A stretch of 64,000 bases of DNA from a virus (lineage: Duplodnaviria; Caudoviricetes). The translations under genes and the position numbers were made by a program. Location of the stretch: the IMG/VR virus record IMGVR_UViG_3300016662_000119, positions 270 to 64,269 of that record; one strand, given 5' to 3'. Of this stretch, positions 5,314-52,972 are shown one piece after another. Position 1 is the stretch's first letter. Each line of letters opens with the position of its first letter. Below the pieces are notes generated by a model. The model was not told the origin of the DNA. It saw nothing but the letters and a program-made list of their open reading frames with translations, and ran no database searches.

Positions 5314-6594
5314 CTACACGACCTTGACCATCACATAGGCCCGGCCGTCCGGTTCAATCGAAATCACACGGCCGACCGCGCGCAGGTACTGCTTCATGCT
5401 GAGGTCATCCTCGTGCACGGCAATGCCCTTGATGCCAGCACCGTCCTGCACCGGCACGATGTAGTCGCCTGGCTGGGCGCCTTGCACGTTGACCGGCACG
5501 CGGCCGGCAATGGCGATGCGGTCGACCTTCTGGCGCTCGACCTCCAACGCTGCATCGAACACGGCCATAGCCTTCGCATACAGCTGCATGGCGGCATCAT
5601 GCGCGGCCAGGGCGGCAGCATACGTGGCCTGTTTGGCCGCCCACTCGGCGTCGGTATCGCCGGGCGTCACCACTTCCTGATACTCCGGGGGATTGGTGCC
5701 GGGCAGCGCCCGCTGCTCGATTACATCAGCGCGGCGCGGTGGCGGCGATGGCACTGGCCCCGCCTGGGGTATCGGACGTGGCCCGACACAGGTCGCCCAG
5801 GAATCGCCGCCGACATAGGACGGGGCGGTCGATTTGATGGCAAACATGACAGCGTCGCCCCATTTATCAGTGATGGTATTGTCTTCCGTGATACCGATAA
5901 TCTGCCCCTTGGCGACTATCCCGCACAGGGCAGATTTGAAAATGTACTCAGCATAATCATTGCCCGGGGTATTAACGGTGCCGAGCGCACGGATACTGCT
6001 GCTGGTAGTTGAATTTTTCCCGATATACATTACGGTGGCAGCGACAGGCAGCAGATCGCCACTGCCTGCACGAAGCACCATTGTCTCCACAGAGCCTGAC
6101 AGGCCCGCCCGCAGCAGTGCCGTCCCTTGCTCGCCGACAGGAGTAAAACCACCTGACCCGGCCACCTGCACGAGATCGACGTCATTGTCGTACGTTGTCC
6201 CTACCAGCATCGAGCCTCGCTCCGTCAAGCGTGCTACCTCCCGCCATTTCCCAAGTCCTTCTCCCGTCTCGAATGCGGTGTAGCCGGCATAACGCTTCCC
6301 TGGGTCACCTGCGCCGACGATTCGAGTGCCGTACCCATCGGCACCTGGGTAACCAAACCGGATGGCAGTGCCGGCAATGCCAGAAACGCTAGAGTTCGTT
6401 ACCAATGCCAATTGTTCGATAATGCCAAGTTGCCCCAAGCGAATTGCGGTAATGGTCGATGTCGTGGTCATCGGACCAGTCAACGTCCCGCCAGTCAGCG
6501 GCAGTGCGTTGTATGGTCCAGCAGCAAATGCGGTGTACAGCGCGTTCAGGCACTCATTGACATTCGGCATGCCATCATAAAAAAAGTTAGCCAT
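5314..6594 (-). CDS. Tail fibre/spike with a probable C-terminal intramolecular chaperone (peptidase G2-like)
   Basis: LPLTGGTLTG fibre motif. DYAEY motif followed by IGI...KSTAPSYVGG...RIAIAGRVPVNV. End of the tail operon. Confidence 0.75.
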   Translation of the reverse strand: MANFFYDGMPNVNECLNALYTAFAAGPYNALPLTGGTLTGPMTTTSTITAIRLGQLGIIEQLALVTNSSVSGIAGTAIRFGYPGADGYGTRIVGAGDPGKRYAGYTAFETGEGLGKWREVARLTERGSMLVGTTYDNDVDLVQVAGSGGFTPVGEQGTALLRAGLSGSVETMVLRAGSGDLLPVAATVMYIGKNSTTSSSIRALGTVNTPGNDYAEYIFKSALCGIVAKGQIIGITEDNTITDKWGDAVMFAIKSTAPSYVGGDSWATCVGPRPIPQAGPVPSPPPRRADVIEQRALPGTNPPEYQEVVTPGDTDAEWAAKQATYAAALAAHDAAMQLYAKAMAVFDAALEVERQKVDRIAIAGRVPVNVQGAQPGDYIVPVQDGAGIKGIAVHEDDLSMKQYLRAVGRVISIEPDGRAYVMVKVV

Positions 6595-48510: not shown

Positions 48511-48834
48511 TCATGGCTTCGCACCTACGTCGATCCCGACGGCGGCTCGCGCAGGCACGGTATCGAAAATGGCATTGGTAGTCGACGGCTGGCGGCCGGC
48601 GTGACCTGGATCGGCAACAACTAGCTCGGGCCAAATTTTGTGCCAGTCATCAGGGCGAAGCTCTCGACGCGTTACCTTGCCGCCCGTCGTCCCCTCAATG
48701 GCTGGGCAGTGCCGAATCGCGACTGGGCGGATGTTTTCGATCCACTGATGCAGAAGCGCTGGGGAAACGTTAATCGCACGAGCGAATTCAGCTTTCTTCG
48801 TGCCTGACTCGATGAGGTAGTTTTTGAGGTTCAT
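48511..48834 (-). CDS. cro: Cro/YdaS-like repressor
   Basis: KKAEFARAINVSPALLHQW...CPAIEGTTGGKVTRRELRPDDWHKIWPEL. Divergent from cI. Confidence 0.85.
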   Translation of the reverse strand: MNLKNYLIESGTKKAEFARAINVSPALLHQWIENIRPVAIRHCPAIEGTTGGKVTRRELRPDDWHKIWPELVVADPGHAGRQPSTTNAIFDTVPARAAVGIDVGAKP

Positions 48835-48844
48835 GCCGCAATAA

Positions 48845-48904
48845 TAGCATTGCTAGTATTAAAGTCAATAGCATAGCTCGTTGCGATCTTAAATAGCATC
48901 GCTA
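48845..48904. promoter_or_regulatory. OR operator: three TAGCA-N-TGCTA-type palindromes
   Basis: TAGCATTGCTA at 48845, TAGCATAGCTC at 48869 and TAGCATCGCTA at 48894 (24-25 bp pitch). Confidence 0.85.
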
Positions 48905-48914
48905 TACTTCGCAA

Positions 48915-49679
48915 ATGAAAAAAGAACCTAAGGCACTAGAAGATTGGCAGGTGGAAGACGCCCGGCGCCTCAAGGCGCTTTTCGATGCGCGCGAGCCGAA
49001 GATCTCACAGGCTGAATTTGGTGCGCAATACGACATTGGCTCGCAAGGCATGGTGTGGCAGTACGTGGCGGCACGCCGCCCGCTGAACATCAAGGCTGCC
49101 ACGGCTTTCGCTCGTGGCCTGGGCGTGACTGTCGAAGAAATAAGCCCACGAATCGCAAGCGAAATCGCTTCCGCAGCGTCGCATACTAGTTCGGCCGCTG
49201 GCCCTTTTGAAATGCAGGATGCCCGGCCAGTAACTGGTGACGATGACATGGCTCCTCCCATGGTTGCCATTCGGATGGTTCCTGAGCACCTGAGGGCAGG
49301 CATCACCGGTTTTGAAACCGATCATCTTTATGAGGACGGCGGCCACTTGCACGTTCCGCGCCAGTGGCTCGAAGAGAACGACCTCTCGCCGGATCAGCTG
49401 CGCGCCGTGAAGATCAAAGGCGACAGCATGGTACCGATGATGTATGCAGGCGATGTTGCAGTAGTAAATATCAAAGACAAAAGCCGTGTGAGCGGCGGAG
49501 TCTTTGCCTTGAACTTCAAGGGGGAATCGGTGGTCAAGCGGCTTCGATATGATCGTCGCGAATGGTATCTAACCTCTGAAAACCCCGAATTTCAGCATGA
49601 GCCATGCAGGACCGGGGACTGCAATGTCATCGGCCGCGTCGTGCGTTTCGAGCCGCGCAACTTTAAAGATAGGCTATAG
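48915..49679 (+). CDS. cI: CI repressor (HTH plus S24 autopeptidase)
   Basis: N-terminal HTH (ISQAEFGAQYDIGSQGMVWQY), AG cleavage site, and catalytic GDSM and VVKRL. Confidence 0.92.
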   Translation: MKKEPKALEDWQVEDARRLKALFDAREPKISQAEFGAQYDIGSQGMVWQYVAARRPLNIKAATAFARGLGVTVEEISPRIASEIASAASHTSSAAGPFEMQDARPVTGDDDMAPPMVAIRMVPEHLRAGITGFETDHLYEDGGHLHVPRQWLEENDLSPDQLRAVKIKGDSMVPMMYAGDVAVVNIKDKSRVSGGVFALNFKGESVVKRLRYDRREWYLTSENPEFQHEPCRTGDCNVIGRVVRFEPRNFKDRL

Positions 49680-50012
49680 ATGAAGAAAATCATTTTCACG
49701 TGCATCGCTGTCAGTATAGGGGGTACTGCATTCGCTGCCCCCAACGACGCATACTGCTTAAAAATGGGGAAGATGGCTCAATCTGCTGCGCAGGTGATGG
49801 AGGCAGGCGGTACCGAAGAGATGCTGAAGAATTTGCGCATAGCGAGTGCAGCAAAAAACAAGCAAGTGAAAAGTGAAGAGCAGCTGAAGATCGACCAGCA
49901 AAACGAGTCCATGATGGATACTATTGCCAGCTTTGTTTTCACAACCAAACAGGAGTCAAAGACAGCGCGCCTAGTTGTCTATAAAAAGTGCCTTTCCGGC
50001 GACTTTAATTGA
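49680..50012 (+). CDS. Secreted Cys-pair protein B (paralog of 17689..18027)
   Basis: Starts directly after the cI stop. Signal peptide (AFA-AP) and YCL...MEAGGTE...ARLVVYKKCLSGDF. Confidence 0.8.
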   Translation: MKKIIFTCIAVSIGGTAFAAPNDAYCLKMGKMAQSAAQVMEAGGTEEMLKNLRIASAAKNKQVKSEEQLKIDQQNESMMDTIASFVFTTKQESKTARLVVYKKCLSGDFN

Positions 50013-50497
50013 TGATCAGCATACGCTCGCTTGCCTTACTCGGCTTTGCACTCATGCCCGCTTTTACTCATGCCGAGACCTGGCAATTTACCGACGCAGC
50101 AACTGGCCGCGCCTACACCGTCAGCCAGGCCGTGCCGGCTGACGCCTGCAAGCTGCTCAGCAGTACAAAAAATCCGCACTTCACAGGCCCAGCTGTTAGT
50201 GAGCAGCCAGTTCCTGTATCCATGCGTGGGCCGCAGTCCTGCAACAAGATGGCAGCCCAGGAGGTCCAATTAGGCATCCGTGAATTCGCCAAGTCGCACA
50301 TCGAGGGAGATCACCTGGCCGTGCACTGGGTGTACGCAATCGAGCGACAGCCCGAGGCGAAACGCCTGCAGATGGTCACGGCCTATGCTGATATGGATGC
50401 GTGCTTGGGTGGCGCTGCGCGGGAGATCATGTTCTACCGCAAGGGTAAGCTAATGGGGATTGCATCCCCGACAACTGGCGTGCGGCTGGTGATGTAG
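50009..50497 (+). CDS. Secreted hypothetical protein
   Basis: Signal peptide ending THA, three Cys, overlaps the stop of the previous gene. Confidence 0.7.
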   Translation: MMISIRSLALLGFALMPAFTHAETWQFTDAATGRAYTVSQAVPADACKLLSSTKNPHFTGPAVSEQPVPVSMRGPQSCNKMAAQEVQLGIREFAKSHIEGDHLAVHWVYAIERQPEAKRLQMVTAYADMDACLGGAAREIMFYRKGKLMGIASPTTGVRLVM

Positions 50498-50642
50498 TGC
50501 AACAATTAGAGAGATTTCAGGTTGCATATTTATATATAATCAGAATTTCCTCCTAGACACATTATATTGCTGGCTCGAAATAGCCTAATTTAATGGATGA
50601 TATTCGCGCATTCACCTTAATTGGCAAGCATCTCAAGACCCA

Positions 50643-51560
50643 ATGGAACAATCCCCGCAAAAAAATATTGCCAGCATGGCAGCAACGAATATAGCTGACG
50701 CGAAATCAATTCCCAGCCAACCAATTGCGGTACCGTTGTTTGCAACATCTGCATATTTAAGCTTTGCTGAATGGCCAAAAGAGTCGACTGCGGCTTGCGT
50801 ACATGCATGCGAAATTCATCACCCGAGCGCCGGCCGCGTTACTGCATATGCAAAAATGTATCGCGCTACTGTAGGTGGCCGAGGATTGTTAAATGAAATT
50901 TCTGCCTTTATTCTTGGGAGGGCTTTAGGTGCACCAATGGCTGATCACGCCTTTGTTTGCATGATTCCGTTAAGCAGATTATCCTCACCGCCATCTCACC
51001 ATAAATGGATACGAGAGTTACTGGCGAAAAATAAAAATGCAGATTTCCCAGCATTTTGCACTAGTAAAATGGATGGAAGTGATGCAGTCATAGAATACCT
51101 CAGAGCAGGGTCCAAAGTATTTTCCGAAGATATTCGAAAATGGAGGGCGCTACCCCTCGCATCCAGATTTGATCAACATATTTCCAACACAGATCGACAT
51201 CTTGGAAATCTTCGGCGTACTGCCAAGCATACATATAAACTATTCGACCACGGCCGCATTGTGACGGATGATGGCGATTGGATTGCTAGCGACCTCGCCT
51301 CACGGACAGGAAAGAAAAATACTGACAGCCTGCTACTGGAGGCTTGGCCTGATGGCTGTCCCGCTGAAGTTGTTAGTGACATTCTCCTACATCTTGGCTA
51401 TCATGAGACGGCTTTAACTATTGCGCTGCCAGATTTGCGCTGGTGGTGGTCACGCCTTGCTGAACCATCCGATGCGGCAAGCTTTGAAAAATACTTGATC
51501 TATAGAGCCGCGGAGCTCAAGACAATGTATCAGACGGCATACGGCCAGCTACCACTATGA
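50643..51560 (+). CDS. HipA-like (HipA_2 family) kinase
   Basis: beta3 Lys (AYAK), helix-C Glu (LLNE), catalytic loop NTDRHLGN and Mg-binding FDHG. Confidence 0.82.
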   Translation: MEQSPQKNIASMAATNIADAKSIPSQPIAVPLFATSAYLSFAEWPKESTAACVHACEIHHPSAGRVTAYAKMYRATVGGRGLLNEISAFILGRALGAPMADHAFVCMIPLSRLSSPPSHHKWIRELLAKNKNADFPAFCTSKMDGSDAVIEYLRAGSKVFSEDIRKWRALPLASRFDQHISNTDRHLGNLRRTAKHTYKLFDHGRIVTDDGDWIASDLASRTGKKNTDSLLLEAWPDGCPAEVVSDILLHLGYHETALTIALPDLRWWWSRLAEPSDAASFEKYLIYRAAELKTMYQTAYGQLPL

Positions 51561-52444
51561 ACTATGATTTGCTACGAGCAGATGCTCAACATATTCAGCC
51601 TGCGCCAATTCAAGGCGACTGGCAAATTATTCAATTTCAACCCGACTTTACCACGGGCGAAATATTCAATATCGGCGTTATTTTCTTCGAAAAAAGAAAG
51701 AAAACACCCCATGTCAAGCTATTGCCCAGTCTCGCTGGATTTCGATCTATTTACGGAGCAAATGGCGCGGACAACTTCAAATTTCTTCTGCGCCTACTTC
51801 ACGAGCAGTTAGTAGAGCTTCACGAGCTGAGATCGCCAAGCCCGCAAATTATATTTGGTAAAAAAAAATTTACCTCGGGGAATAGTCCACAAGAAATCAT
51901 CTCCCATTTATATAAAAATATGGTCACGTTGGCCAGGGCAAAAGATGAAGCCGAGGATGATGCGAACGGTTTCTCTTCACTAAAGACAGAAGAGTTACGC
52001 AGGCGCGTATTTAAAGCTGCCCAGAAAAAAATGGGAAATGGTTGGTCATCAATATTTCGGAACGATCCAATATCTGTTTCCGATAACCGGGGCATGCGAC
52101 ACTCCCTAGACCTTCCAATCTGGCGTGGTGAGGATCTTTTAAGTGCTCAAATTTATGGGACTATACTATCTGCTCAGTTCAGATCGGATGCCTACCGGTC
52201 AGCTTCCCTTTCGACCGGATATGTTAATTTCAATCAAGCTGCTGAAATTGCAAAATCAGCCAAAGGCGGACTACTGATACTTCGTCCATCAAAAGAAAAC
52301 ACGGCATTTGATGAACAATTGCGCGCAGAGATCGATAACGATATTGATAAAATTACATGGCCATATATCAAACGTAGGGGAATTAAAATTCATGTTGCCG
52401 ATTCGGTCGACGAGTTGGCCAATGCAGCATTAGCCTTGCTATGA
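51557..52444 (+). CDS. DUF3037-like partner protein
   Basis: WQIIQFQPDFTTGEIFNIGVIF N-terminus. ATGA overlap with the kinase gene. Confidence 0.7.
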   Translation: MNYDLLRADAQHIQPAPIQGDWQIIQFQPDFTTGEIFNIGVIFFEKRKKTPHVKLLPSLAGFRSIYGANGADNFKFLLRLLHEQLVELHELRSPSPQIIFGKKKFTSGNSPQEIISHLYKNMVTLARAKDEAEDDANGFSSLKTEELRRRVFKAAQKKMGNGWSSIFRNDPISVSDNRGMRHSLDLPIWRGEDLLSAQIYGTILSAQFRSDAYRSASLSTGYVNFNQAAEIAKSAKGGLLILRPSKENTAFDEQLRAEIDNDIDKITWPYIKRRGIKIHVADSVDELANAALALL

Positions 52445-52464
52445 GTTCGAATTAAATCACCGTC

Positions 52465-52487
52465 AGCTCGCCTCGCGCGGGCTTTTT
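52465..52487 (+). terminator. Terminator after the kinase operon
   Basis: AGCTCGCCTCGCGCGGGCTTTTT. Confidence 0.65.
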
Positions 52488-52545
52488 AGGTTCATCGCAT
52501 TTCCAATCACTTCCATCTTAGCAATATTCGACGCATAATGCATTT

Positions 52546-52824
52546 ATGCAACTATGCGCCGCCATCATCAATATCAAGCAAATTCAGTTGGCCGTGGTCC
52601 AGATCGAGCCGGAGCATACCTGGCCGTCCACTGGCCCGGCCGCCCTGCTCCATGCGCAACGGTTCTTCCCTACCTTGCCTATTTTGCTGCTGTCGCCGCG
52701 TGTCGGCGGCTTCTCGCGCAGCTACTCCACGTTCGACATCGGTCCGCTGATCAGCCAGATCAACGCTGACGAAATCGAATGGCAGACCCACCAGCGCCCA
52801 CCGCCTCCCGAACTACCCTTCTAA
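52546..52824 (+). CDS. Hypothetical protein
   Basis: 92 aa followed by a hairpin and T-tract at about 52837-52862. Confidence 0.55.
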   Translation: MQLCAAIINIKQIQLAVVQIEPEHTWPSTGPAALLHAQRFFPTLPILLLSPRVGGFSRSYSTFDIGPLISQINADEIEWQTHQRPPPPELPF

Positions 52825-52900
52825 GCACGCATACCAGCCTCGACGATTCGGGGCTTTTTTTCGCCTATCGCTGGCCGTTGTTGAAATTTCGCATTTTTAC

Positions 52901-52936
52901 TAGCAATGCTATTGCGCTATTAAAATAGCTTTGCTA
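52901..52936. promoter_or_regulatory. OL operator: two palindromes matching OR
   Basis: TAGCAATGCTA at 52901 and TAGCTTTGCTA at 52926. Confidence 0.85.
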
Positions 52937-52972
52937 TTATCCATTCATCGAAAGCAAACACAGGAGTACGAC

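Follow-up and report, generated by a model that had tools for sequence, protein, structure and literature searches.

A two-gene cassette at positions 50498–52483 of the window, that is, the entire stretch of 64,000 nucleotides analyzed here, which is part of a 64,269-bp provirus record in IMG/VR, probably is a horizontally acquired moron, lodged within the immunity region of a lambda-like provirus, that encodes a divergent anti-phage system of the HipAD family (also described as DS-6 and PDC-M66), in which an atypical kinase would be the effector and a DUF3037 protein, the partner that restrains it. To judge by its sequence, the pair is a divergent member of this family rather than a system of a new kind. 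It opens no new mechanism; its significance is that the recently validated HipAD (PDC-M66) kinase defense family is extended to a divergent clade carried by high-GC proviruses, the hosts of which are probably Betaproteobacteria.

The cassette encompasses two genes on the plus strand that are preceded by a spacer and closed by a terminator-like hairpin. The first gene (50643..51560) encodes a HipA_2-like atypical Ser/Thr kinase of 305 aa, and the second one (51557..52444) encodes a DUF3037 protein of 295 aa, a HipD-like putative antitoxin. At the junction, which reads CCA CTA TGA AC, the stop codon of the kinase gene and the start codon of the partner gene share ATGA (51557–51560, a 4-bp overlap), so that the two genes are probably translationally coupled. 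The intrinsic terminator-like hairpin, followed by TTTTT (52465..52483, plus strand), is located 21 nt past the partner stop codon, and between the terminator-like site inside cI (49307–49320) and this hairpin, no other such site was found on the plus strand. The AT-rich spacer upstream of the kinase gene (50498..50642, plus strand) is conserved along with the cassette, at about 94% identity to the corresponding DNA of another provirus, L003, and contains TATAAT; no full consensus promoter was called within the spacer, and there is no clear Shine-Dalgarno sequence ahead of the kinase start. The GC content is 0.43–0.47 over approximately 50400–52500, compared with about 0.61 in the flanks, and GC3, at 0.39 in the kinase and partner genes, is likewise lower than in cI (0.61) and the recT-like gene (0.71); this drop in GC and GC3 fits horizontal acquisition of the cassette. 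The preliminary description of the locus, made from the sequence of the window, as two AT-rich genes with an ATGA overlap and a shared terminator is thus borne out. Its statement that the pair lacks a HipB-type HTH antitoxin holds as well: there is no HTH gene within the cassette, the nearest one being the phage cI, about 1 kb upstream.

The cassette is embedded in an immunity region with the gene order cro, OR, cI, two small ORFs, kinase, partner, terminator, 92-aa ORF, terminator, OL, and recombination genes, a layout that mirrors the cI-rexA-rexB-tImm-OL arrangement of lambda. A cro-like HTH gene (48514..48834, minus strand; Pfam YdaS_toxin/Cro-type HTH, E = 2.8e-14) is divergent from the gene for a cI-type repressor (48915..49679, plus strand) that comprises an HTH region and a C-terminal Peptidase_S24 domain (Pfam E = 6.4e-19). 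The two genes flank an OR-like operator cluster (48844..48905) of three ATAGCNNNGCTAT-type sites at 48844, 48868, and 48893, with a spacing of 24–25 bp, in a region where divergent promoter-like sites are present. On the other side of the cassette is an OL-like operator pair, CTAGCAATGCTAT and ATAGCTTTGCTAT (52900..52937, sites at 52900 and 52925), and RecT-like and exonuclease-like ORFs are located downstream of this cluster in the same orientation. With 0–1 mismatch, ATAGCNNNGCTAT is found in only five places of the whole 64 kb, namely, 48844, 48893, 52430, 52900, and 52925; the site at 52430, within the end of the partner gene, probably occurs by chance.

Three other ORFs lie next to the pair. 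Two of these, of 110 and 162 aa, with hydrophobic N-termini, are located between cI and the cassette (49680..50497, plus strand) and match no families in Pfam, PADLOC, NCBIfam, or PHROGs, and the third one, of 92 aa, lies downstream together with a second terminator-like hairpin at 52836–52855 (52546..52855 for both, plus strand). All were considered as candidate components of the system and rejected: in the other loci examined, the 110-aa and 162-aa ORFs do not precede the pair, and the 92-aa ORF is not found beside it.

The provirus L003 carries a copy of the pair that is 98% identical to that in the window. The repressors of the two proviruses are 84% identical in the C-terminal domain, but their N-terminal DNA-binding domains are unrelated. 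The DNA similarity between the two proviruses spans the cassette, the 92-aa ORF, and the second terminator-like hairpin, and ends at about 52872, just ahead of the second operator cluster. This is the pattern expected of heteroimmune phages, and accordingly, we read the segment 52880–52940 as OL/PL. The operator clusters and the end of the similarity to L003 together place the pair between cI and OL, in the slot equivalent to that of rexAB, as had been proposed in the preliminary description. Compared with the L003 copy, the kinase gene shows 16 synonymous and 7 non-synonymous codon changes and the partner gene, 23 and 2, respectively, and this synonymous excess in both genes indicates that the kinase and the partner alike are subject to purifying selection.

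The catalytic core of the kinase is intact, as originally noted, with the motifs AYAK, NE, DRHLGN, and DHG at residues 68–71, 84–85, 184–189, and 202–204, respectively. Among 63 sequences, E85, D177, D184, R185, N189, and D202 are invariant, and the conservation of K71 is at least 90%, so that the conserved residues K71, E85, D184, N189, and D202 make up a full set of ATP-binding Lys and Glu, DRHxxN catalytic loop, and metal-binding Asp. The sole Pfam match of the window kinase is HipA_2, at 12.2 bits, below the cut-off of 27; searches of PADLOC, including PDC-M66A, and of NCBIfam yielded no match, and the only good family match is PHROG 11186, which has no assigned function (5e-30). Among the sampled relatives, Pfam HipA_2 is matched by 26 of the 63 (best 2e-11) and PDC-M66A by 11 of the 63 (best 2e-10). 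The link between the window kinase and these two models is thus transitive: the relatives match them, but the kinase itself does not.

The AF2 model of the kinase (pLDDT 68.9, pTM 0.71) adopts a protein-kinase-like fold and begins with a disordered extension of some 30 residues at the N-terminus. When this model was compared with known structures using VIA-align, the Z scores were 12.8 for CtkA, 11.5 for PI4KII-alpha, 10.5 for Shewanella HipA, 9.1 for E. coli HipA, and 9.0 for HipT. The ranking comes from VIA-align; Foldseek went no further than a protein-kinase fold in general (E of about 1e-3 to 1e-4). When the PDB was searched with sequence profiles, there was nothing at E up to 10 for one kinase profile (A1) and only sub-significant matches to the catalytic loop of PI3-kinases for another one (A3).

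For the partner, the DUF3037-like N-terminus claimed in the preliminary description proved real but marginal. Its score against Pfam DUF3037 is 22.8 bits, with a cut-off of 22.6, and covers residues 23–55 only; similarly, the match to PADLOC PDC-M66B (E = 3.1e-6) is confined to residues 22–88. A feature search of the Atlas returned clusters that bear DUF3037. The close partner family consists of 11 clusters, which share their contigs with the kinases. The AF2 model of the partner has a mean pLDDT of 56.5, with values below 50 over residues 163–236, and is acceptable for the N-terminal domain only.

Phage defense, its requirement for the kinase and for the catalytic Asp, and toxicity upon loss of the DUF3037 protein have been demonstrated elsewhere for homologs of the pair. 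DUF3037 is strongly tied to HipA-like kinases, and the pair corresponds to the PADLOC candidate PDC-M66 (PMC12548924). In the Retron-Sda1 operon, deletion of the kinase results in the loss of defense, deletion of the DUF3037 gene is toxic, and the retron parts are dispensable; the HipA-like/DUF3037 pair inside this operon works as a stand-alone defense system (PMC12548924). DS-6, which defends E. coli, consists of the kinase DS-6A and of DS-6B, a DUF3037 protein with a weak match to DUF1829 (HHpred 0.78), and loses defense in the catalytic mutant, with D139A named in the strain list of the supplement; AlphaFold3 predictions include a contact between DS-6A and DS-6B and a contact of DS-6B with DNA (PMC13092281). 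According to the same source, DS-6 (DefensePredictor) was independently found in E. coli prophages and renamed HipAD by Brenes & Laub (2025) (PMC13092281). The preprint of Payne (2024) makes no mention of M66 or HipA. A 67-residue stretch of DS-6A matches Escherichia phage PhiR5_1 (PV340545.1) at 100% identity, and in the GenBank annotation of this phage, a 'HipA toxin' and a 'HipD antitoxin', encoded by genes that overlap by 4 bp (6378–6381), directly follow cI and precede kil/gam/bet/exo. PhiR5_1 HipA matches PDC-M66A (6e-15), HipD matches PDC-M66B over its full length (4e-16), and all 25 sampled relatives of HipD match both DUF3037 and PDC-M66B.

Both proteins of the window are homologous to this pair. 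BLASTP placed D184 of the window kinase opposite D139 of PhiR5_1 HipA, at an overall identity of 24% (E = 9e-4), and when the wide kinase alignment was compared with the same protein using hhalign, the match extended over the catalytic core with a probability of 96% (E = 4.9e-9). For the partner, the BLASTP comparison with HipD was not significant (E = 0.6), and neither was that of the narrow partner profile with the single HipD sequence; significance was reached only once the alignments were widened on both sides. The 14-member partner alignment (A5) and the 25-member HipD alignment (A4) then matched with an hhalign probability of 93.6% (E = 2e-7) over 243 columns, 23–296 versus 8–272, that is, nearly over the full length.

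As in the window, HipAD consists of a kinase gene followed by a DUF3037 gene, with a 4-bp overlap and the DRxxxN...D core in the kinase, and in PhiR5_1 it occupies the lambdoid slot downstream of cI, on the cI strand and ahead of the recombination genes. The two proteins are shorter in DS-6, the kinase being 249 aa long, compared with 305 aa, disordered N-terminal extension included, in the window, and the partner, 275 aa, compared with 295 aa; the DS-6 overlap is at 2415–2418 (PMC13092281 supplement). In PhiR5_1, unlike in the window, no small ORFs separate cI from the pair, and the host lineage is a different one; the relation between the partners is seen only by profile-profile comparison, and the curated Pfam and PADLOC kinase models miss the window kinase. 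Given that both proteins, the gene order, the overlap, and the prophage slot match those of HipAD but the curated kinase models fall short, we file the pair as a divergent member of this family. The preliminary description had presented the pair as a candidate kinase-based defense system, to be checked against Pfam, DefenseFinder, and PADLOC, and had specified beforehand that a match to a characterized system would count against it; the pair matches PDC-M66, DS-6, and HipAD, which are one and the same catalogued and characterized system, and the claim of novelty therefore fails.

The association of the two genes is maintained across distant relatives. In every distant locus examined (L002, L004–L012, and the Moraxella phage Mcat22), the kinase gene is overlapped or closely followed by a gene for a protein of 281–305 aa with a DUF3037-like N-terminus. 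Directly upstream of the pair, a repressor-type gene is found in L004 (HTH_3), L005 (HTH_3 and S24), and Mcat22 (Phage_CI_repr), and other relatives reside in chromosomal defense-island contexts, where their neighbors are HsdR of type I restriction together with Fic, a DEAD/MZB helicase, or Vsr together with a methylase. Among isolated phages, the closest pairs are those of the Moraxella phages Mcat22 and Mcat18, with 26% and 31% identity, respectively. Their two genes overlap as in the window and come directly after a CI-type repressor gene; in contrast to the window, this repressor gene itself overlaps the kinase start, which results in a three-gene string, and there the pair is unannotated.

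Other known systems share some features with the pair. The Retron-Sda1 operon contains the same pairing of a HipA-like kinase with a DUF3037 protein, a likeness drawn from the description of that operon, but, unlike the window, it also includes a reverse transcriptase and an ncRNA in a retron context. The canonical type II toxin-antitoxin system HipBA (E. coli HipA/HipB) and HipBST likewise rely on a kinase toxin, which has broadly the same fold as the window kinase and is neutralized by a protein partner. Canonical HipBA, however, has a gene for a HipB-type HTH antitoxin upstream in the operon and thus the reverse gene order, whereas in the window, the putative toxin comes first; canonical HipA is about 440 aa long, compared with the 305 aa of the window kinase, in which HipA_C, HipA_N, and Couple_hipA gave no Pfam match and NCBIfam gave none. 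The rexAB genes of lambda occupy the same slot as the window pair, in that they have the cI orientation, lie between cI and OL/PL, and end at a terminator, and they share with it the presumed role of excluding other phages from the lysogen. Otherwise, only the slot is common: RexAB combines a sensor with a membrane ion channel, includes no kinase pair, and has no sequence or fold relation to the proteins of the window, for which the Pfam, PADLOC, NCBIfam, and PHROGs results include no Rex family.

Under the mechanism that we propose for the window pair, the two genes would be transcribed in the lysogen together with cI or from a weak promoter of their own in the conserved AT-rich spacer. The DUF3037 protein would bind the kinase and keep it inactive, and might bind DNA as well. 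Infection by a heterologous phage would then lead to the release or activation of the kinase, which would phosphorylate an essential host or phage target by means of the catalytic D184, and phosphorylation of this target would stop growth and abort the infection, so that the lysogen population would be protected, as it is by rexAB in lambda. The binding, the trigger, the target, and the same behavior of the divergent clade are assumed here by analogy with the characterized pairs, and toxicity, neutralization, and defense would be extrapolated to the window clade across less than 25% identity. The initial interpretation of the locus as a toxin-antitoxin or abortive-infection pair stands insofar as, in homologous pairs, the partner restrains and the kinase acts (PMC12548924, PMC13092281); its novelty does not, given that such pairs are already characterized.

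The toxicity observed after deletion of DUF3037 in the homologous system fits any toxin-antitoxin pair, and in two heteroimmune proviruses, the cassette accompanies the immunity region. Both observations would also fit a prophage addiction module that mainly stabilizes the prophage or its immunity region, through the death of cells from which it has been lost, and that has no genuine function against phages. We consider this unlikely given that homologous pairs conferred measured, kinase-dependent protection against phages and that relatives are also found in the chromosomal defense-island contexts (HsdR/Fic, DEAD/MZB helicase, and Vsr/methylase). Addiction and defense roles are compatible with each other. 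Another conceivable function, given the intact catalytic core and the location in a slot that other prophage exclusion genes also occupy, is that of a non-toxic regulator kinase, which would modify proteins of the host or of phages, for example, to tune lysogeny or to exclude specific phages, with the partner serving as a substrate adaptor and not as an antitoxin; a precedent is Stk of phage 933W, a prophage kinase reported to exclude specific phages directly. This appears very unlikely to us: the window kinase has no sequence relation to the Pkinase-type Stk, matching only HipA_2 and PI3/PI4-kinases, and both proteins are homologous to a pair with toxin-antitoxin behavior.

The C-terminal half of the partner could suggest that this protein is itself the effector, with a nuclease-like domain, under the control of a kinase that acts as its sensor or gate. 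Structurally, residues 143–295 come closest to ERCC4/XPF-type nuclease-like domains (Z of 7.3 for FANCM, 7.2 for ERCC1, 6.2 for FAAP24, and 5.6 each for Mus81-Eme1 and Hef, in a low-confidence model), and in DS-6B, the weak DUF1829 match and the predicted DNA contact (PMC13092281) point in the same direction. However, Z of about 7 is the stated noise level of the structure-comparison tool, and the pLDDT is below 50 over residues 163–236, so that we treat the ERCC4-like matches, and with them the degenerate nuclease fold suggested in the preliminary description, as a lead only. Moreover, the top matches are mostly non-catalytic members of the ERCC4/XPF fold; no acidic or Lys residue of the C-terminal half is invariant across both clades, that is, in the window-type and HipD alignments, and for K186, which is invariant in HipD, the window clade offers no conserved equivalent. 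The Retron-Sda1 deletions, in which loss of the kinase abolishes defense and loss of the partner is toxic, are the opposite of what a nuclease effector predicts (PMC12548924). With no invariant catalytic-type residues across the clades and with the toxicity of partner loss in a homolog, the suggestion in the preliminary description that the kinase gates a nuclease effector is unsupported, and we regard it as highly improbable. A DNA-binding role of the C-terminal half is possible and would fit the published AlphaFold3 DNA contact.

A more speculative view, which we would grant a small chance of being correct, is that the pair stands for a sister clade of HipAD, both deep and rare, which the current models miss and which might have diverged in sensing or phosphorylation. 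For example, the C-terminal domain of the partner might be a catalytically dead ERCC4-like binder of DNA structures that would detect phage DNA or replication intermediates and then release the kinase.

The close kinase family is rare: a set of 5.8 billion proteins contains 13 clusters of it at 90% identity, which come from proviruses and MAGs. The profile of the close family retrieved 368 representatives among 1.84 billion, and a locus search with the narrow kinase alignment yielded only one genomic and four viral loci. The nearest genomic relative comes from a Comamonadaceae MAG, and the GC content of the window is about 61%. PADLOC v2, which missed the kinase, and Pfam HipA_2 under-detect this clade, so that profiles built from the sequences collected here would improve annotation. 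With the divergent HipAD pair of the window included, members of the family are found next to cI, in the rexAB slot, in temperate phages that are unrelated to one another, namely, an E. coli lambdoid phage, the Moraxella phages, and the window provirus.

The provirus in the window and L003, the sister provirus that carries a 98% identical copy of the kinase-partner pair, are heteroimmune. Between their repressors (window 48915-49679, L003 6307-7065), the S24 C-terminal domains are 84% identical and the N-terminal DNA-binding domains are unrelated, and, at the other end of the region (window 52872-52940, L003 about 10230), the DNA similarity stops exactly at the operators of OL, the second operator cluster. 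The two proviruses are a clean case of immunity specificity swapped around a common defence cassette.

Small ORFs lie on either side of the cassette. Immediately 3' of the repressor gene cI and 5' of the kinase gene, two overlapping ORFs of 110 and 162 aa (window 49680-50497) encode proteins with signal-peptide-like N-termini and without any family match; the second (162 aa) has a relative in L003. These may be envelope or exclusion proteins made in lysogeny. A 92-aa ORF of normal, that is, high, GC content (window 52546-52855), which is flanked by two terminator-like hairpins, lies immediately 5' of OL and is also kept in L003; it had no match in Pfam.

Distant kinase-DUF3037 pairs are found in different gene company. 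In four loci, namely, L016 (Moraxella phage Mcat22; 3576-5709), L004 (4052-6337), L002 (7454-9727) and L007 (810-3092), the kinase gene starts, as called, within the gene immediately 5' of it. This neighbour is HTH or repressor-like in three of the loci (L016, L004 and, weakly, L002); in L007 it matched no family. The resulting string of three genes runs from the repressor or HTH gene through the kinase gene to the DUF3037 gene. The pair might be under the control of the HTH protein, or this protein might just be the phage repressor. In three other loci, L009 (1-3380), L011 (1387-4941) and L012 (2191-3980), the distant pairs adjoin genes typical of defence islands, the neighbours across these loci being a 1845-aa DEAD/MZB helicase; Fic and type I HsdR; and a Zn-dependent phospholipase C, Vsr and a C5 methylase.

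Within the window, one copy of the operator motif with a single mismatch, TTAGCCTTGCTAT (52430-52442), falls on the final codons of the partner gene and is probably a chance occurrence.
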